From the UHGV virus genome UHGV-0398751: a stretch of 6,421 nucleotides of DNA. One strand, 5' to 3'. The translations under genes were made by a program, and so were the position numbers. Below the pieces are notes generated by a model, which was not told where the DNA came from, did not search any database, and saw only the letters and a program-made list of their open reading frames with translations. The stretch is from a virus. Shown here one piece after another: positions 1-6,421 of this stretch. How positions within the stretch are numbered: position 1 is the stretch's first letter; each line of letters starts with the position of its first letter.

Positions 1-752
1 AAAAGATCCCGAGTAGAGGGGTTAATAACCATCAAAGGTTTACCAGAAGCATCATAAGCGACAAAACGACAGCCATTATAAAAAGCAGTACGGACGTTAT
101 CCGAATCAAAGGACAAAGGAAAGGAGACTTTATCAACTGCTTTAGTTAAAGAAGGTCTAAGAGTGTCAACATAACGAAATGAAGAGACAGAGGGTGCCGG
201 ATCAGAACCAGCAAGTTCATCAGCTGTTTTAGTAAAAAGCAAGTTTTCATAAGCCGAAAGGGTAAGTCTGCCAGGCATCAAGGTAGTATTACATTGACTT
301 GTCTTGTCTCCAGTATACCAATCCCAAGTAGAAGTAATAGTATTACCAAAATTACCAACCAAAGTAGTAGGAATACCAAGATAGTCCATTAACTGACCGG
401 TCTTCAACATTTTATCAATAATCGTCTGACTGTTGAAATCATGATAAGGTTCTTCAAGACCTGTACGGAAATTTCCTATAAAATCCTTGTAATCTTTCCA
501 AAGAGCACGAAGAGGATAGCGGAAGTAAGCAATACTAGCACGCATGCGTGTTTGTATAGGAAACACCATAGGCATAAGCTGTAATGCCGGAATAGGTTTA
601 GCGCGAAAAGACGTTTTCGCAGGGACTAGTTCACACTGAATAGGTGTAATACGACCTATTTGCGTCGTTAAGTTGTTAACATGTGTCCAATCGAATGTAT
701 TTTGTTTTACATTATTATCGGGTTCTAAGGTTGCATCCCAAATATTTGCCAT
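1..752 (-). CDS. VP1: Major capsid protein VP1 (F-like), N-terminal 250 codons. ATG at 752..750; the frame stays open to position 1 and continues at the window 3' end, since the genome is circular.
   Basis: Manual minus-strand translation has no in-frame stop from 752 to 1. It gives MANIWDATLEPDNNVKQNTFDWTHVNNLTTQIGRITPIQCELVPAKTSFRAKPIPALQLMPMVFPIQTRMRASIAYFRYPLRALWKDYKDFIGNF... This matches the conserved Microviridae VP1/F N-terminal pattern (FDLSH-like FDWTH, GxLxPI, PxxxxxP, RxLW..W.DF). The partial codon at positions 2-1 plus the complement of 6421 gives TTG, which is in frame with the minus ORF ending at 4954. Confidence 0.9.
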   Translation of the reverse strand, partial: MANIWDATLEPDNNVKQNTFDWTHVNNLTTQIGRITPIQCELVPAKTSFRAKPIPALQLMPMVFPIQTRMRASIAYFRYPLRALWKDYKDFIGNFRTGLEEPYHDFNSQTIIDKMLKTGQLMDYLGIPTTLVGNFGNTITSTWDWYTGDKTSQCNTTLMPGRLTLSAYENLLFTKTADELAGSDPAPSVSSFRYVDTLRPSLTKAVDKVSFPLSFDSDNVRTAFYNGCRFVAYDASGKPLMVINPSTRDL

Positions 753-753
753 A

Positions 754-948
754 TTATTTATATTTAATGTTTATACTGGTGCTATCAGCACGTAATGTTG
801 AACTCTGTTCAGTGTTCTGAGAACTACCTGAATTATTCTTAAAGATAGACATACTAGCAGTGCAGCTATCCAAGAAAAGTACAGCGGCTACAGAAACAAT
901 CGCTGTAGCTACAATTTTTACAATCTCATAAATCTGTTCCTTTTTCAT
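754..948 (-). CDS. Small secreted, membrane or lipoprotein-like protein (64 aa). Its stop at 754..756 lies one nucleotide from the VP1 ATG.
   Basis: MKKEQIYEIVK then an 18-residue hydrophobic core IVKIVATAIVSVAAVLFL then DSC (lipobox-like L-x-S-C; TAS also resembles a signal peptidase I site), followed by a polar Ser/Thr/Asn/Gln-rich tail. Same strand as, and tightly coupled to, VP1. Confidence 0.45.
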   Translation of the reverse strand: MKKEQIYEIVKIVATAIVSVAAVLFLDSCTASMSIFKNNSGSSQNTEQSSTLRADSTSINIKYK

Positions 949-1153
949 CCTTTAAGGGGGAATAAGTAGGGTTAACAATCTCTTCAAACGAAGCAAGAAC
1001 AATAAAATCCGGATTATTATCCGAAATAGAAGAACGAATATTCTCAAGCTGAGATGGTCTTCGAAGTTCACCAATATTAATAACGAGTAACGGCTGGAGT
1101 GTTTCACGTGAAACAATTTCCAAAGATCCATAAAGTTTAGTTGGTTTTTCCAT
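926..1153 (-). CDS. Hypothetical acidic small protein (75 aa). It overlaps the start of the 64-aa ORF by 23 nt.
   Basis: ORF on the coding strand of a compact genome, with no obvious motif. Net acidic (about 12 D/E against 8 K/R). It could be a scaffold-like or other accessory protein, but I do not recognise it. Confidence 0.35.
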   Translation of the reverse strand: MEKPTKLYGSLEIVSRETLQPLLVINIGELRRPSQLENIRSSISDNNPDFIVLASFEEIVNPTYSPLKDEKGTDL

Positions 1154-1156
1154 AAC

Positions 1157-1444
1157 TTAATTATTTAAAATTTGACAATTATCCTTAAAGGCATGTTTTT
1201 CAACAACGCCTACAAGTTCAAAATTAGAAGCTTTGCAATAATCTCTAGCATCCTTATAAGCACGAGAGAGAGAAGAAGCAGTCAACATATGAATACCATA
1301 ATAACTTCTGCTAACAGTAAGATACAGGGCAATATATTCTTTTTTCATATTAGTCATTATCAGAAATAGAATGAAGGTAATATCCGGATTTCTCAAAAAC
1401 GCCATCGTATACTTGTTTGGCAATTTCAACAACGGCTTTATCAT
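1157..1444 (-). CDS. Hypothetical protein. It is 95 aa from the ATG at 1444; more likely 63-66 aa from the internal ATG at 1357 or 1348, which begins just after the upstream ORF stop.
   Basis: The long form overlaps the 60-aa ORF by 95 nt in another frame and adds a hydrophobic N-terminus (DITFILFLIM). Starting at M33 (MKKEYIALYLTVSRSYYGIH...), 5 nt separate the stop of ORF 1350..1532 (1350-1352) from the ATG at 1348-1346 on the same strand, with no overlap. The Y-I-A-L-Y...S-Y-Y-G-I spacing is faintly GIY-YIG-like but I do not consider it reliable. Confidence 0.35.
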   Translation of the reverse strand: MIKPLLKLPNKYTMAFLRNPDITFILFLIMTNMKKEYIALYLTVSRSYYGIHMLTASSLSRAYKDARDYCKASNFELVGVVEKHAFKDNCQILNN

Positions 1445-1532
1445 TCAACAAAGACATTAAAGTGTAAGCATCTACTTCAATTTCCCTTTTAATAGTTTTT
1501 TCTGTTGATTTAAATGTTAGTTTTAGTTTCAT
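1350..1532 (-). CDS. Hypothetical small protein (60 aa) immediately downstream of the Rep gene.
   Basis: ORF on the coding strand, 33 nt after the Rep stop. Mixed-charge, probably helical, with no recognisable motif. Confidence 0.35.
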   Translation of the reverse strand: MKLKLTFKSTEKTIKREIEVDAYTLMSLLNDKAVVEIAKQVYDGVFEKSGYYLHSISDND

Positions 1533-1565
1533 AATTATATCTCTTTTTTTTATTACACTACAAAT

Positions 1566-2954
1566 TTACAATATTTCTTTTTCATATGCAAGTTTTATGC
1601 TCTGAATTATGTTATAATTAACATCATTTAAAGATAGCTGTTCTTTTGAAGCAAATCTACGTTTAAGAGAAAGCTCTCTTTTTTCAAGCAATTCAGAACG
1701 GACAGAAATATACGATGCGTCATAGGTTACCAATGATAAGAAACGAACATAATAGTCTAATTCTAACTCAATAGCGAGATTACGTTTGTAAATACGATTA
1801 TAATAACGAGAATCAGGGTTAAGTATTTCGGGCTTGCAATAAGTTTGTACTTTTAAAAACCAGAACTTTTTGTAGATTTCTTTTTCGAGTTTTGAGATCT
1901 TTGGCTGAAGGGGCTCTCCAAGCAACTTATTTAATTGATATTCATTTTGGATACGTTCGGAAATAAGGAGTGTAAACTTTTTAAATGCATCACGGGTAGG
2001 TTTATCTAATACAGCGGAATTACTGGGATAATACAATCGTTTAAAATACGACGGGAGAAACACAGTTTCAGTCTTACCGGAAAATGGATCTGTAACAGAT
2101 ATATCCAAACAATCAGGGTGCTTCATATAAAAATCTTTACAATCACGGGCATAACGAGCACCGAGACCTCCATTTTTACGAGAGGATAAAAAGAATACAG
2201 GACGACATCCTTCAGGAACAGCAGGTTCTTTTCTCATGTATTTCATGACATAGGAAATAACACCTTTATCGCAGGGTTTTACAAGACAGAAGCCAAGAGA
2301 GTCGGTAACAGGCGTACCGTCGGAAAGATATTCTCCAGTAGGCACACGCCAGCAGCGCTCAATAAAATGTAACACAGCAGTAATATTCGGAAAATGTTCA
2401 GAAGGAAATGACCATAGTATGGCATGATAATGAGGACGACCAGACTTATGACCATATTCACCAACAGCAAAATAACGAATGTTCGAAGAATCAATACCTT
2501 TGCGAGTCAAGCTCATACGAAGACGCTTCATGAATAATTGGAATTCTTCTTTAAATACACCATGCTTGGGTAAATGCCTAGGATTGTATGTACATGTAAC
2601 AAACAGAGGCTGAGAGGTAGAATACACATTCTCACAAATGGCACGGAATGACCATTCACGTTTTTTCTTATCACGACAGAGATTACACTTGCCGCAGGGA
2701 ACGACCATAAACATAGGTATAATTTCACCATCAAACGTAGGTATATAGAATTCATCTACATTATCAATAGTTACACCTAAGCGACGACAAGAGTACTTAT
2801 ATTTGGGAAAATAGTAACGATATGCTGCAGCAACATCTTTATCGATAAACACCATACCATTAGGAGTATGATAACGCTTGTATAGAGACAAATTGTAAGC
2901 AAGAGTATGAGCCTGTATAATAACAGGATTAAGGCAAAATATATCTTTATTCAT
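1566..2954 (-). CDS. VP4: Replication initiation protein VP4 (462 aa), a rolling-circle HUH endonuclease (phiX174 gene A-like).
   Basis: Has the three RCR motifs: LFVTCTY (motif 1), GRPHYHAILW (HUH motif 2) and VISYVMKYMRK (Y..K catalytic motif 3). Also a CxxC zinc finger, VVPCGKCNLCRDKKKREW, upstream of motif 1. Confidence 0.93.
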   Translation of the reverse strand: MNKDIFCLNPVIIQAHTLAYNLSLYKRYHTPNGMVFIDKDVAAAYRYYFPKYKYSCRRLGVTIDNVDEFYIPTFDGEIIPMFMVVPCGKCNLCRDKKKREWSFRAICENVYSTSQPLFVTCTYNPRHLPKHGVFKEEFQLFMKRLRMSLTRKGIDSSNIRYFAVGEYGHKSGRPHYHAILWSFPSEHFPNITAVLHFIERCWRVPTGEYLSDGTPVTDSLGFCLVKPCDKGVISYVMKYMRKEPAVPEGCRPVFFLSSRKNGGLGARYARDCKDFYMKHPDCLDISVTDPFSGKTETVFLPSYFKRLYYPSNSAVLDKPTRDAFKKFTLLISERIQNEYQLNKLLGEPLQPKISKLEKEIYKKFWFLKVQTYCKPEILNPDSRYYNRIYKRNLAIELELDYYVRFLSLVTYDASYISVRSELLEKRELSLKRRFASKEQLSLNDVNYNIIQSIKLAYEKEIL

Positions 2955-3002
2955 AACTAATTATCTAGCTCACGGAAGGAGCACTTTACATCAAATCGCA
3001 AT

Positions 3003-3016
3003 AACCGTAAACGGTT
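3003..3016. promoter_or_regulatory. Inverted repeat AACCG-TAAA-CGGTT in the VP2-Rep intergenic region, upstream of the Rep start. Possible operator or Rep-regulatory hairpin.
   Basis: Perfect 5-bp arms with a 4-nt spacer, 50-60 nt upstream of the Rep ATG (2954) and downstream of the VP2 terminator. Confidence 0.3.
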
Positions 3017-3082
3017 GATACACAAGGTGTGTTAGTTGCTTATATATTATCAAGTATTTCGCGAACGATTTTGGAATAAATC

Positions 3083-3110
3083 GTAAAAAGGCGCCCGAAC
3101 AGGGGCGCCA
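3083..3110 (-). terminator. Rho-independent terminator directly after the VP2 stop.
   Basis: On the minus strand: TAA(3116..3114) GTAATTCT GGCGCCC-CTGTTC-GGGCGCC TTTTTACGATTT. It has a 7-bp all-G/C stem (3090..3096 / 3103..3109), a 6-nt loop and a T5 run (complement of the A run at 3085..3089). Confidence 0.6.
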
Positions 3111-3113
3111 GAA

Positions 3114-4283
3114 TTACCTACGTAGACCTTTAACGCCTATAGGCTTGGGTAATCCAATTCCTGTGCCGGAAATGAACGAACCAGCAGAGCCGATCACACC
3201 GGAGACGGAATCTACTATACCTGTAACAAGGTTAACACCTCTTTCAAGGTTTTTAAACGTCTTGTCAGAATCAAGGTTAAACGCGGCTTGGTCACCTTGT
3301 ATATTAATAAGGCGGTCGAGCTTCCCGTACATGCTAGTGCGGGCACGCATCTCTTCTCTGGAAGTGTATTGGGTCTTAACACCTGCTGACTTAAGAGCAG
3401 TATCTGCATTAATATTCAATACAGTAGCGGAACGGGTAGCCAAATATGTAGCAGCTTGCTCGTAATTAAGGCGAATAGTGGAATTATTGACACGCACTTG
3501 TTCCTGAAATTCTGCCACACGCTGACGAAATTCCTTCGAACGCATCATCATACCAAAACGTGTAGCTGCGGTATTCGCATTAATATTTCTGATGTTAGCT
3601 TTAACTTCATCCGCTTTCTTGTATAGCAAATCAGTATTGGCAGCAGCCTCAGTTATACGGGCAGAGGCTAGCTCAGCCTCTTTATGATTCAACTTTCCAA
3701 TAGAATGATTTACATAAATGGTAGAGCGTCCAATCTCCAAAGCTTGCTCATTCTGTGCAGCACGGGTAAGAGCATCAGCAGAGAGAATTTTACCTTCAAT
3801 CTTAAGGTTTTCAGTTTCTTGCCTTGTCTTACCTTTATCAGCCTCTAGTTTCCGAATCTGTGCAGCTACAAGAGATTGACTTACAACGTTGTTAGTGATG
3901 TCTCCAATCGTAGCTTTCTGTCCAATAGCGGAAACATCCGTAGGCGTAGCAGGAGCAACAGGAGTGACAGAAGGGGAAGAAGAAGCAGTGTTTTGAGCAT
4001 TACCACCATAGAACAAATCAGCATTAACACCTGCGTCACGAAGACGTTGGCGCATAGCTTCAGGGCTATTGTATTGGTTTTCTCTGTTCCATTGGTCAAT
4101 ACTCCATTGGTTTGCTTGCTCTGCCATAGCCTTGTTAAATACTCTTGATCTCTCATTTTCTTCACGTTGAAAAGCTATTTGCTTATCAATATTGGCGTTC
4201 TGTTGTTTATTACCAACAACATTACCAAGAAGAGAAGCTCCGCCACTAAGGACAGAGCCAAGAAATTTACTGAAAAATCCCAT
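3114..4283 (-). CDS. VP2: Minor capsid / DNA pilot protein VP2 (389 aa, H-like).
   Basis: Gly-rich hydrophobic N-terminus (MGFFSKFLGSVLSGGASLLGNVVG). Conserved Microviridae VP2 block ...FNKAMAEQANQWSIDQWNRENQYNSPEAMRQRLRDAGVNADLFYGG (the F.E.M...A.QR...AG.NP.L pattern). Long Ala/Gln/Glu-rich coiled-coil middle and a Gly-rich C-terminus. Located immediately after VP1 and the small ORF, as in other microviruses. Confidence 0.85.
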   Translation of the reverse strand: MGFFSKFLGSVLSGGASLLGNVVGNKQQNANIDKQIAFQREENERSRVFNKAMAEQANQWSIDQWNRENQYNSPEAMRQRLRDAGVNADLFYGGNAQNTASSSPSVTPVAPATPTDVSAIGQKATIGDITNNVVSQSLVAAQIRKLEADKGKTRQETENLKIEGKILSADALTRAAQNEQALEIGRSTIYVNHSIGKLNHKEAELASARITEAAANTDLLYKKADEVKANIRNINANTAATRFGMMMRSKEFRQRVAEFQEQVRVNNSTIRLNYEQAATYLATRSATVLNINADTALKSAGVKTQYTSREEMRARTSMYGKLDRLINIQGDQAAFNLDSDKTFKNLERGVNLVTGIVDSVSGVIGSAGSFISGTGIGLPKPIGVKGLRR

Positions 4284-4286
4284 AAG

Positions 4287-4598
4287 CTATTCTCCATATA
4301 ATTGAATGTCAGACTTTTGAGCTTTCATTACACGTTTTTGTGAAAGTTTTTCGGTTTCCCAAACAGAGCACATAGTTGCATCTCGTCTGAATTGCGGTTC
4401 AATATTCCAACTAGCACCTTCTTGTGGAGAAAGGAAATTTTGTGCATTCGGCAGAGAGACGGCTATACCTTTGTCGGTTAAAGCCTTGATATCACTCGGT
4501 GTGAGCGCCAAGCCAGGTTTTGTACAAATGTGATCAACCTCATGATTGTGTACGCATTGACAGGGGTTAAGCTGTGCTTTAAAAATTCTTTTTGCCAT
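4287..4598 (-). CDS. Hypothetical protein (103 aa) with an N-terminal Cys/His cluster. Its stop lies 3 nt before the VP2 ATG.
   Basis: MAKRIFKAQLNPCQCVHNHEVDHICTKPG... carries CxC-x-HxH-x3-H-x-C, which resembles a Zn-binding or HNH-type (xEVDHI) beta-beta-alpha-metal motif. The rest has no known motif. A/T-rich leader and no Shine-Dalgarno sequence, like the other genes. Confidence 0.45.
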   Translation of the reverse strand: MAKRIFKAQLNPCQCVHNHEVDHICTKPGLALTPSDIKALTDKGIAVSLPNAQNFLSPQEGASWNIEPQFRRDATMCSVWETEKLSQKRVMKAQKSDIQLYGE

Positions 4599-4953
4599 AA
4601 TCTTTTGTTTTTAATTGTTTATTTTTATTTGGGCGTTACGGCTAAAGCCGTCGGGCTTTCTGCGGTACACGGTACTGCTGTCAGTCCCTAACGCACGCAA
4701 CAAAGTTGCTATCTTTGTCCGGTATACACCGGAGAGAATCTTTTCACTTTTAATCTTACGAAACTGCAAAGATAAGGTAGAACGCTCGAAATGTCCAATG
4801 AACCTTGCACTAAAAATGATTAAATACGCGCACACGCAAGCGCGCGCACGCATTTAACAATTTTTACTACAAGAACCCTTGGTCATATCGCTCGTTCTGC
4901 TTGTGAAAGCAGTGTCGGAAGAAAAAAAGAAAAAACATTCTCTTTTTCACCAA
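4599..4953 (-). promoter_or_regulatory. Largest non-coding region (355 nt) between the VP1 stop and the next gene. It is hairpin-rich and locally GC-rich. Candidate promoter and ssDNA replication-origin or primosome-assembly-like region.
   Basis: No credible ORF on the coding strand. Hairpins at 4638..4651 (ACGGC-TAAA-GCCGT), 4700..4718 (ACAAAG-7nt-CTTTGT), 4719..4732 (CCGGT-ATAC-ACCGG) and 4897..4912 (CTGCTT-GTGA-AAGCAG). Quasi-palindrome TTAAAT-[CG/CA alternating 26 nt]-ATTTAA at 4820..4857. CACGCAA occurs at 4694..4700 and 4833..4839. The ATG of ORF 4287..4598 follows an A/T-rich leader typical of Bacteroidetes. Confidence 0.5.
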
Positions 4954-6421
4954 TTAGTCAAGACGCGGTATTGCGACACGAGCGACAGGAAGTTTCACGG
5001 TGCAATCAATTAAAATCTGTCCGTAAACTTTATCCGTAACATCTGTAACACTGAATACATCTGTAACCTGATCAGGGTCTATCGTTAAGAAGCCTTGGGA
5101 AAGTTCCGGCTTTTTATCAAACACTCGATGCATTAAGAAGTTAGACAAATCAGTACGGAATAAGCCATGCGCCTGATCATAGCGCTGACAGTATTCATAC
5201 CACGGTCTTTGATAACCAAAGGTTTCCGTCAATGAATTAGGATCAGCATTATACGCCTGAATTGGACATACTTCCTTATAAGTAATTGGCTGGAATGATA
5301 TATTATTAAACTCAGGGTTGAAGTGATCTAAAAGTCCACGATACAAGAAATGTTTCGGCAATAATTGAGTATAAACAGGCAACGGAGTAATTACCAATAG
5401 ACCCATAATAATACTTTCTTCATCACAGAAGCACTCAATGTTAGCATCAGAACCTCCACGGAAATAACCTATACCTGCTTGCGAGCCAAGGACATCTTTG
5501 TAAGCACCTTCACCTTCAGCAGTTTGATCTACGGTTTGAGAAATAGCATTCATATTAATATCACGAGAGAAGCCTCCGAAGAATTCAGGTAACAGCAAAT
5601 CAGCGTAACGTACTTTAATATCGAAACGACCCTCAATGATTTCTTTATACGAGTAACCTTTACGCATGTTAAGCTCTAGGAATTTCTGGTAGGCGTTTAC
5701 ATTACGTAAATCAGTAATAGAGATACCACTAGTTACCAAATCAAAAAGTGTACGCGCGGAACGGACGGTTGTACCATTATCGAGCTCTACATATTTAACA
5801 CCTTTCAACTCGTCCTTGTCAGATTCAAATTCAAGAGAATAACGTTTTCCATCTTCGTCAACCATAGCTACTTTTGTCTGCTGCGTTAATGTCGGGTTAC
5901 CTTGTTCGTCGTAAACTCTAGTAACCTGATCATAAGTGGTGATACCTACAAGAGGCGCATTGCCTTGCTGTGGTGATTGAACGGAAGTCGTAAGAAAGTC
6001 TTTTTCCCAGTTGGCATAACGTAACTCATAAGGATATGTATCAGCTCCACCTTCATAAGTCGGGATCCATTGATTATATTGAACAACACCATCGATATAA
6101 TATGGATTATTACGATTGTCACGATAAATGGAATTATAAATACCTTCGTAAGCACGGGCAGCGTAGGCAGAGAGCTTGATTTGTTTATCCTTATTAGCCG
6201 AGTTCGAATTATAATACGGAGAATTCGATATAGAAAGTTCGGCAATATTAGGATTGACTTCCATATAAGAAACACTGCCTAAGGTACCTAAAAACAAACC
6301 ATTAGAACCAAGAGGAGACGAAAAATTAGATGCCTGAATAGACGGGAAATATAAGCGTAACTTAGCCATCCTGCTAACTACATCAGAAGTAAGAACAAGT
6401 GTAGCTTGGTTACTAGACAGC
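4954..6421 (-). CDS. VP1: Major capsid protein VP1, C-terminal 488 codons plus TAA stop at 4954..4956. The frame is open upstream of the listed ATG (6369) to the window edge, so this is the continuation of the 752..1 segment.
   Basis: ORF track shows a 471-aa protein. The 17 codons upstream (6420..6370: LSSNQATLVLTSDVVSR) have no stop. The frame joins the 5' segment if the window is circularised, giving about 739 aa in total. The size and composition fit the large VP1 of Bacteroidetes-associated microviruses. Confidence 0.88.
   Translation of the reverse strand, partial: LSSNQATLVLTSDVVSRMAKLRLYFPSIQASNFSSPLGSNGLFLGTLGSVSYMEVNPNIAELSISNSPYYNSNSANKDKQIKLSAYAARAYEGIYNSIYRDNRNNPYYIDGVVQYNQWIPTYEGGADTYPYELRYANWEKDFLTTSVQSPQQGNAPLVGITTYDQVTRVYDEQGNPTLTQQTKVAMVDEDGKRYSLEFESDKDELKGVKYVELDNGTTVRSARTLFDLVTSGISITDLRNVNAYQKFLELNMRKGYSYKEIIEGRFDIKVRYADLLLPEFFGGFSRDINMNAISQTVDQTAEGEGAYKDVLGSQAGIGYFRGGSDANIECFCDEESIIMGLLVITPLPVYTQLLPKHFLYRGLLDHFNPEFNNISFQPITYKEVCPIQAYNADPNSLTETFGYQRPWYEYCQRYDQAHGLFRTDLSNFLMHRVFDKKPELSQGFLTIDPDQVTDVFSVTDVTDKVYGQILIDCTVKLPVARVAIPRLD

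Follow-up and report, generated by a model that had tools for sequence, protein, structure and literature searches.

The window, the whole 6,421-nt stretch of DNA analysed here, carries every recognisable gene on its minus strand, as the preliminary description had stated. Read on a circle, the order along that strand is VP1, a structured spacer of 355 nt, orf103, VP2, VP4 and four small ORFs, of which orf64 is the last. The coding strand, of which the window gives the reverse complement, is presumably the one packaged in the virion. VP1, the capsid gene, is present in two parts on the minus strand, a 5' part at 1..752 and a 3' part at 4954..6421.

Two profiles for 'pilot protein for DNA ejection', phrog_8689 (E 1e-16) and phrog_31272 (E 5e-15), matched the 389-aa product of 3114..4283 (minus strand) and identify it as VP2, the DNA pilot protein (H/VP2) of the Microviridae. 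Its gene and the one annotated as DNA pilot protein in PQ007396.1 are syntenic. A terminator-like GC hairpin followed by a T-run (GGCGCCCCTGTTCGGGCGCC then TTTTT; 3090..3109, minus strand) lies 4 nt past the VP2 stop. VP4, the 462-aa rolling-circle replication initiator (1566..2954, minus strand), matched Pfam REP_ORF2-G2P (PF23343; E 4e-18, 66 bits against a cut-off of 27.8) and phrog_942 (E 2e-57). It carries three rolling-circle motifs, namely motif 1 FVTCTY at aa 118, the HUH motif HYH at aa 175 and YVMKY at aa 235, and profiles and motifs together identify it as a Microviridae HUH initiator (A/VP4).

Among the smaller genes, orf103 (4287..4598, minus strand) is the ORF directly 3' of VP1. 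It is conserved, with tblastn matches at 39-96% identity in 52 of the 56 related loci; searches of Pfam and PHROG with its product matched nothing. An ORF at this position in Alpavirinae has been proposed to encode a VP3-like scaffolding protein (PMC3394797). The product of orf64 (754..948, minus strand), present in 49 of the 56 loci at 39-98% identity, contains a hydrophobic helix together with a lipobox-like [S/A]-C-T motif that does not vary. Matches to orf75 (926..1153, minus strand) were likewise found by tblastn in 49 of 56 loci, and this ORF was called by the Logan gene caller. Two overlapping small ORFs, orf60 (1350-1532) and orf95/66 (1157-1444), form a variable accessory module (1157..1532, minus strand) that is kept only in the three to four closest relatives and was called on both Logan contigs. 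None of the small ORFs had a match in Pfam or PHROG. The gene content had been described as a full Microviridae complement; this was borne out for VP1, VP2 and VP4/Rep, but homologues of VP3 and VP5 were not detected in Pfam or PHROG, and the set is of the Alpavirinae type. We did not accept an 80-aa ORF at 4611-4853 as a gene, as it spans the spacer hairpin, is disrupted by frame-breaking indels in relatives and was not called by Logan.

The capsid gene across the window ends

On the minus strand, the frame that begins at the ATG at 752..750 is open to position 1 (250 codons and two bases), and the ORF with its stop at 4956..4954 runs open from 6420 and meets the first half in frame. The codon at the junction is an in-frame TTG formed by the complements of positions 2, 1 and 6421, base 6421 of the 3' part completing it (residue 251). 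Circularising and translating the sequence, a check that had been proposed earlier, yielded an uninterrupted ORF of 2,220 nt that encodes 739 aa, and its sole stop is the terminal one. An in-frame stop is found six codons 5' of the VP1 ATG. Nothing is duplicated between the two halves, as had been noted, because the window is without a terminal repeat of at least 5 nt. The two end-truncated ORFs should be annotated as one capsid gene.

The expected capsid profile match spanning the junction was also obtained, with phrog_514 (major head protein) matching the joined protein once, from aa 11 to 738 and across residue 251 (E 1e-82). Pfam Phage_F was detected at E 2.6e-38 (132.5 bits against a cut-off of 25), and matches to the capsid structures PDB 8DES (E 1e-21) and 9CGM (E 7e-12) further identify the protein as a Microviridae F/VP1-type capsid. 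In a tblastn search, joined VP1 aligned over aa 3-739, as a single HSP, with ON840045.1 (71%), in which the capsid gene is uninterrupted, and the joined protein was also collinear with the uninterrupted capsid genes of PQ007396.1 and MN379637.1. Over its N-terminal 130 aa the protein shows 88-92% identity to VP1 of relatives, and the middle of the protein (aa 131-317) is hypervariable, with 5-15% identity. This replaceable cassette of about 190 aa probably marks the host-recognition surface. Since the junction lies inside the hypervariable middle, the join cannot be verified to the exact base from homology alone. It was verified by contiguous assembly, as an 80-mer over 6421|1 is internal to both of the Logan contigs considered below (L004 and L058).

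Relatives, classification and probable host

Megablast of the window against GenBank phages returned one record only, which covered 18% of the query at 78% identity, and the closest GenBank VP1 was that of ON840045.1. The closest IMG/VR and ENA genomes showed 79-94% nucleotide identity outside the replaced VP1 cassette, and the window was collinear from end to end with three relatives (L013, L049 and L054), with no loss or duplication. Gene order and size match those of circular relatives (PQ007396.1, 6,456 nt; IMG/VR and ENA genomes that carry terminal repeats and measure about 6.26-6.58 kb after trimming). The order VP1, orf103, VP2, Rep and small ORFs is shared with circular relatives between 6.36 and 6.46 kb in size. 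An exact 40-mer over the junction had no match in IMG/VR, and the genome is absent from that collection. ON840045.1, a Rattus norvegicus microvirus whose linear, partial record is broken in Rep, and the bajarodmic viruses (PQ007396.1 and others) share the order orf75, orf64, VP1, orf103, VP2, Rep. Identities to ON840045.1 and PQ007396.1 were, respectively, 71% and 53% for VP1 and 84% and 52% for Rep.

A small circular genome with all genes on one strand is as found in the Microviridae (about 4.2-6.5 kb). Within this family, the Gokushovirinae (8DES, 9CGM) have a homologous VP1 jelly-roll capsid, a VP2 pilot protein, a VP4 Rep and genes on one strand. Gokushoviruses have genomes of about 4.5 kb in which VP3 and VP5 can be recognised, and their VP1 measures about 550 aa. 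In contrast, the present genome is 6.4 kb (6,421 nt), VP3 and VP5 were undetected, its small ORFs being without a Pfam or PHROG match, and its VP1 of 739 aa contains the central hypervariable cassette.

Alpavirinae, a proposed subfamily whose name is not in the NCBI taxonomy, have genomes of about 6-6.5 kb with the order VP1-(ORF)-VP2-VP4, only these three genes being recognisable (PMC3394797, PMC3091885). The genome described here has this architecture in size, gene order and the three recognisable genes. It resembles the Alpavirinae, which include the Bacteroidetes proviruses BMV1-7 and the genomes from the human gut in Roux et al. (2012), in its size of about 6.3-6.4 kb, its long VP1, its gut metagenome origin and its Bacteroides-integrated relatives, but differs in being new at the species level. 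Among the Alpavirinae-like microviruses the genome is a new member at the species level, a placement suggested by similarity to Bacteroides proviruses and by genome architecture.

Only two relatives were found among 185,579 species genomes, both in Bacteroides (best-segment identity 56% and 71%). One of them, a prophage of about 6.5 kb whose gene order agrees with that of the window, has a TPR-protein gene on one side and a UspA-like gene on the other, and its VP1 is intact. In the prophage relatives the opening of the circle falls between Rep and the small ORFs and in no case within VP1, and the spacer matching the prophage ends is only 33 nt in the window (1533-1565). On these sequence relationships, and in line with the Bacteroides-type promoter motif in the spacer 3' of VP1, Bacteroides is most likely the host. 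With the window, the Bacteroides-associated microviruses, a group abundant in the gut but uncultured, gain one species-level genome.

Closure of the circle

In Logan assemblies, 30-mer repeats at a contig's ends are a sign that the contig is circular (PMC12424806). The preliminary description had read the window as a whole circular genome and had called for a search for terminal overlap in the source assembly. The source contig ERR8081355_2600 (L004; 6,451 nt) has an exact 30-nt terminal repeat and, once trimmed, matches the window's reverse complement exactly apart from rotation. A contig from a different run, ERR8083320_298 (L058; 6,451 nt), has its own exact 30-nt terminal repeat, which lies inside Rep. 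Trimmed, both contigs represent one 6,421-nt circle cut at different places, and no mismatch separates them. VP1 on ERR8083320_298 (1923-4142) is one unbroken 739-aa gene identical to the joined protein. Both the window junction and the closure point of ERR8081355_2600 are internal to ERR8083320_298, and each cut point falls inside some other contig.

The terminal repeat of ERR8081355_2600, that is, its closure point, corresponds to the 30-mer at 5676..5705 (minus strand), which encodes the VP1 motif RNVNAYQKFLE, occurs as a single copy in the window and falls where the VP1 alignment is invariant and free of gaps. The cut points of the assemblers are thus at 5705/5706 of the window, in VP1, and inside Rep, and the window's own cut is a rotation point only. 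This evidence for closure comes from assembled contigs, and a head-to-tail tandem array would yield identical contigs. ERR8081355 and ERR8083320 are neighbouring accessions that may share a study or subject, so that the assemblies are independent but the populations perhaps are not.

Terminal repeats could also arise if the window were a piece of a longer, non-circular Bacteroides prophage locus, with flanking direct repeats that mimic closure. Two relatives (L005 and L006) are integrated in Bacteroides, and Alpavirinae were first described as proviruses with short flanking dif-like direct repeats (PMC3091885). Members are taken to lysogenise at dif-like attachment sites by way of XerC/D. However, neither the window nor either source contig contains cellular genes, and no flanking cellular DNA is present. 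The contig repeats lie at two sites, in VP1 and in Rep, and both are in frame, whereas an att repeat would occupy one fixed intergenic site, and the prophage relatives have VP1 intact and their opening elsewhere. We consider a longer, non-circular prophage locus extremely improbable. The circle could instead be an assembly artefact, either a strain chimera or a cycle closed through a conserved 30-mer. A gut sample often holds several strains, related strains share 80-94% nucleotide identity outside the hypervariable VP1 cassette, and k=31 graphs can swap strain at shared 30-mers. Such an error is very unlikely here, as the agreement of two assemblies from two runs, with no mismatch and with different break points, argues against it, as do the intact state of all ORFs and the collinearity with L013, L049 and L054.

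We are highly confident that the window is a complete, circular, Alpavirinae-like Microviridae genome of 6,421 nt, most likely infecting Bacteroides, which is presented as its reverse complement and cut arbitrarily in VP1. As the genome is complete, it can be deposited, rotated to the VP1 start and classified, and it can count as one viral operational unit. Intergenic regions need to be read on the circle, as had been pointed out, including the junction of orf64 and VP1, where the gap between the orf64 stop and the VP1 ATG is 1 nt. The finding of a circular genome is in itself ordinary and mainly guides annotators.

From what is known of the family, coding-sense ssDNA would be packaged and converted by a host enzyme to the double-stranded replicative form. 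Rep would nick this form and drive rolling-circle synthesis through its HUH and Tyr motifs, and the progeny strands would enter VP1 procapsids. We infer an ssDNA genome in an icosahedral T=1 virion from family membership only.

The structured spacer 3' of VP1

A hairpin of about 210 nt, conserved and covarying, is formed by the 355-nt spacer 3' of VP1. The hairpin (4733..4943, minus strand) is rod-like, with about 80 pairs and a GC-alternating apex at 4827-4851. Its MFE was -48.9 kcal/mol with DNA parameters (z -7.7), and the viral-sense strand was favoured over the complement, for which -40.0 kcal/mol was calculated. Mononucleotide shuffles served as controls in one folding comparison. Across 20 distinct homologues, none of the 70 predicted pairs was broken and 17 showed compensatory changes, and 97% of the cells in the hairpin alignment were paired, as against 36-53% in slid controls. 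A search of Rfam at E<=1 returned only a chance match to mir-46 (24 bits against a gathering score of 44.7). ON840045.1 and its bajarodmic relatives keep a GC-alternating spacer hairpin, but the long rod-like hairpin is missing from them. A role for the hairpin as attP in CTX-phage-like single-strand integration was rejected, because the hairpin is intact and internal in the Bacteroides prophage L005, which ends between Rep and the small ORFs.

A Bacteroides-type promoter motif (4767..4802, minus strand), resembling the -33/-7 consensus of that genus (PMC4747536), lies on the 3' arm of the hairpin. It consists of a -33 TTG (4796-4798) placed in a helix, a 21-nt spacer, and a -7 element of the form TAnnTTTG (TATCTTTG, 4767-4774) placed in an internal loop. 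The -7 element was kept in 19 of the 20 homologues, the remaining one (L046) having TATCTTCG. Over the whole window TAnnTTTG was found 13 times against 7.6 expected and is not enriched; what is informative is solely that the copy in the spacer is conserved. A scan for sigma-70 promoters gave 20 where 18 were expected, which is chance level. L016 has a comparable rod hairpin but lacks the promoter motif.

The f1/M13 ori(-) and the plasmid Frpo are single-stranded-DNA promoters at which RNA polymerase primes. A hairpin in the same place, the spacer just 3' of the capsid gene, is the primosome hairpin of phiX174 (PMC9865509), and in Frpo the folded single strand shows host promoter elements as duplex (PMC11541004), the likeness here being to the spacer hairpin only. 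Compared with the origins of phiX174 and G4, f1/M13 ori(-) and Frpo, the hairpin described here is much longer, carries the Bacteroides -33/-7 motif and has no sequence similarity to them. By analogy with these systems, we tentatively put the hairpin forward as a candidate complementary-strand origin of this microvirus clade, a role that we regard as possible but rather unlikely. Incoming ssDNA would fold into the rod, in which the -33 element would be duplex and the -7 TAnnTTTG would lie pre-melted in an internal loop. Host RNA polymerase would then begin a primer RNA templated by the T-rich 5' arm and proceed back into VP1, which would carry the mechanism of f1/M13 ori(-) and Frpo over to the unusual promoter grammar of Bacteroidetes. 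In the dsDNA form, the hairpin sequence would double as terminator of VP1 and promoter of orf103-VP2, and the motif could also be an ordinary dsDNA promoter of orf103-VP2. The covarying hairpin with its host-type motif is a testable candidate for a complementary-strand start or a transcription-unit switch, and if the origin model is true, a change of TATCTTTG to TATCAAAC is predicted to abolish the primer.

Reading frame and identity of the joined capsid protein

The minus-strand ORF ending at 4954 was listed in the ORF table with an internal ATG as its start, and the frame running off position 1 had no entry there. We joined bases 4954..6421 to 1..752 of the plus strand and reverse-complemented the product, obtaining a VP1 (major capsid protein) ORF of 2,220 nt, a multiple of three, which translated to 739 residues with its sole stop at the end. 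The proposal in the preliminary description that the two truncated minus-strand frames, one from ATG 752..750 and one to 4954, form one VP1 gene was thereby upheld, as circularisation and translation gave this single 739-aa product. The predicted in-frame TTG was seen at the junction (complement of bases 2, 1 and 6421) and encodes Leu251. An in-frame stop lies six codons upstream of the ATG at 752..750, with no other start codon between the two, and this ATG aligned with the positions at which homologous capsid genes begin. The window lacks terminal repeats of 5 nt or longer, and therefore nothing is duplicated between the VP1 halves, as had been stated.

A single match to the PHROG profile phrog_514 (major head protein) covered aa 11-738 of the joined protein (E 1e-82; profile positions 18-515 of 531), which is the nearly full-length match across the junction that had been anticipated, and Pfam Phage_F gave a score of 132.5 bits (cut-off 25). 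Among GenBank phages, tblastn aligned aa 3-739 in a single piece to the uninterrupted capsid genes of ON840045.1, PQ007396.1 and MN379637.1 (71%, 53% and 42% identity, respectively). The N-terminal 130 and C-terminal 420 residues were well conserved in the alignment, and the central segment, inside which the window junction lies, aligned poorly. Compared with the closest relatives, aa 1-130 and aa 318-739 were 88-92% and 84-93% identical, respectively, and the segment between them, aa 131-317, was 5-15% identical. Homology of the predicted protein proves that the two VP1 halves belong together in this order; the junction base is not checkable in this way, because it sits in the poorly alignable, 5-15% identical segment.

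This central cassette (aa 131-317, ~187 aa; window 1-362 and 6224-6421, minus strand) has the look of a surface module that was exchanged or evolves fast, possibly involved in host recognition. In the relatives compared, the flanking parts of VP1 were 84-93% identical and the genome DNA 80-94%. The linearisation point of the window falls within the cassette.

Circularity of the genome and its relatives

The Rep protein of the window was found encoded on the source contig, Logan contig ERR8081355_2600 (L004), of 6,451 nt. All 31-mers in Logan contig files are distinct by construction, and circular contigs are recognised by 30-mer repeats at their ends and then trimmed (PMC12424806). L004 carried an exact 30-nt terminal repeat, the overlap to be sought in the source assembly, and when trimmed to 6,421 nt was an exact rotation of the reverse complement of the window. 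Its ends correspond to window 5705/5706, within the invariant VP1 motif RNVNAYQKFLE, and the window junction is internal to it. A look-up with VP2 (DNA pilot protein) returned a second contig of 6,451 nt from another run, ERR8083320_298 (L058), which has its own 30-nt terminal repeat inside Rep and, after trimming and rotation, equalled the window circle at 6,421/6,421 positions. VP1 is uninterrupted in L058 (739 aa, identical to the joined protein), and both the window junction and the closure point of L004 are internal to it. Contiguous sequence from another assembly thus spans every one of the three points of linearisation; the molecule is therefore circular or, formally, a head-to-tail repeat. 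The window had been described as a circular genome cut in the capsid gene, and both contigs close to the same 6,421-nt circle.

The occurrence of this genome in two sequencing runs with 0 differences suggests either that the runs share a study or a subject, or that the phage population is very stable and abundant.

The same gene order and size were found in the circular record PQ007396.1 (6,456 nt) and in many contigs of IMG/VR and ENA that carry terminal repeats; in ON840045.1, a partial linear record broken in Rep, the order matched, with orf75, orf64 and VP1 contiguous. The three nearest genomes (L013, L049 and L054) were collinear with the whole circle, and outside the VP1 cassette their nucleotide identity to it was 82-94%. 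When 185,579 species were scanned, each represented by one genome, two relatives emerged, both in Bacteroides; further relatives from a DNA pattern search included contigs labelled human gut metagenome. Bacteroides sp. f07 (NZ_BAABXI010000001.1; L005, ~7000-13580) carries a related microvirus prophage of ~6.5 kb downstream of gyrA, between genes for a TPR protein and a UspA-like protein, in keeping with the founding of the proposed subfamily Alpavirinae on Bacteroidetes proviruses (PMC3091885). In that prophage VP1 is intact and the circle is opened in the interval separating Rep from the small ORFs, which speaks against reading the window as a piece of a prophage.

The closest GenBank VP1 is 71% identical, and DNA similarity spans 18% of the genome. 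Judged by sequence, the window is a complete phage genome whose kind is known and which is new at roughly the level of a species; the preliminary description was correct in observation and interpretation, and the outcome is an ordinary one.

Gene content

On the coding (minus) strand the circle reads VP1, a 355-nt spacer, orf103, VP2, a 159-nt spacer, Rep, a 33-nt spacer, orf60, orf95/66, orf75 and orf64, which ends one base before the VP1 start. VP2 (389 aa) matched the PHROG 'pilot protein for DNA ejection' (E 1e-16), and Rep (462 aa) matched PF23343 and phrog_942 and contains motif 1 FVTCTY, the HUH motif HYH, and YVMKY. The full Microviridae complement that had been described is the Alpavirinae-type set, with VP1, VP2 and Rep recognisable, all on the minus strand; homologues of VP3 and VP5 were undetectable among the ORFs of the genome with Pfam and PHROG. 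This absence is the described state in Alpavirinae, where a VP3-like scaffold gene has been suggested downstream of VP1 (PMC3394797).

The small protein orf64 (754-948, minus strand) has one hydrophobic helix, an invariant lipobox-like [S/A]-C-T motif and a Ser/Thr/Asn-rich tail, and may be a lipoprotein that acts in lysis or exclusion. It was kept in 49/56 related loci, directly upstream of VP1 every time; the homologue in PQ007396.1 (6255-6446) is unannotated there. The variable module of orf60 and orf95/66 (1157-1532, minus strand), kept in the 3-4 closest genomes only, occupies the site where prophage relatives have their ends. Four nucleotides past the VP2 stop lies a terminator-like hairpin, a perfect 7-bp GC stem with TTTTT (3090-3109, minus strand), and the next ~70 nt upstream of Rep (3022-3092) were 79-85% conserved even in the distant L005, L010, L017 and L033.

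A conserved hairpin after the capsid gene

Nucleotides of the VP1-orf103 spacer were conserved even where the VP1 of relatives was only 56% identical. Its first part (4733-4943) forms a rod-like hairpin of ~210 nt and ~80 pairs in the coding-sense (minus) strand, with homologues at, for example, L005:10357-10591, L013:4486-4720 and L010:3244-3478. With DNA parameters the coding-sense strand gave an MFE of -48.9 kcal/mol (z -7.7), and the opposite strand -40.0 kcal/mol (z -5.1); the hairpin is strand-specific because many of its invariant pairs are G·T. In a set of seven sequences pairing held in 97% of cells and in 36-53% once the partners were slid, and 17 pairs changed on both sides, against 2-4 in slid controls; 0/500 shuffles reached the observed covariation. 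In 20 distinct sequences collected by pattern search, which represent three clades only and hence a modest number of independent events, none of the 70 predicted pairs was broken and 17 had compensatory changes. An 80-aa ORF running through the hairpin (4611-4853, minus strand) is almost certainly not a gene, as relatives carry frame-breaking indels and the gene caller skipped it.

The 3' arm carries a Bacteroides-type promoter motif on the minus strand, consisting of a -33 TTG (4796-4798), a 21-nt spacer and the -7 element TATCTTTG (4767-4774). This arrangement fits the Bacteroides -33/-7 consensus TAnnTTTG (PMC4747536), was kept in 19/20 homologues and supports a Bacteroidetes host. The consensus fold places the -33 element within a helix, and an internal loop holds the -7 element. 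The primosome hairpin of phiX174 occupies the equivalent spacer after the capsid gene, and every microvirus should be expected to have a structure of this sort (PMC9865509). Mimicry of RNA polymerase promoters by hairpins of single-stranded DNA is the case in plasmid Frpo elements and in the M13 minus-strand origin (PMC11541004, PMC7948647). On the strength of the motif and these parallels, the most interesting reading is that the hairpin is a candidate promoter-mimicking complementary-strand origin, a reading weakened by L016, a relative with a similar rod hairpin that lacks the motif. At the apex a GC-alternating hairpin precedes a T-rich run, an arrangement that a scan flagged as terminator-like, and the long hairpin could be a plain terminator plus promoter, pairing at the RNA level in read-through transcripts. 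A Rep-dependent plus-strand origin is a further candidate. A role as attP is excluded, as the L005 prophage holds an intact internal copy. Besides the promoter-mimicking origin, an ssDNA promoter is another candidate role for the hairpin.
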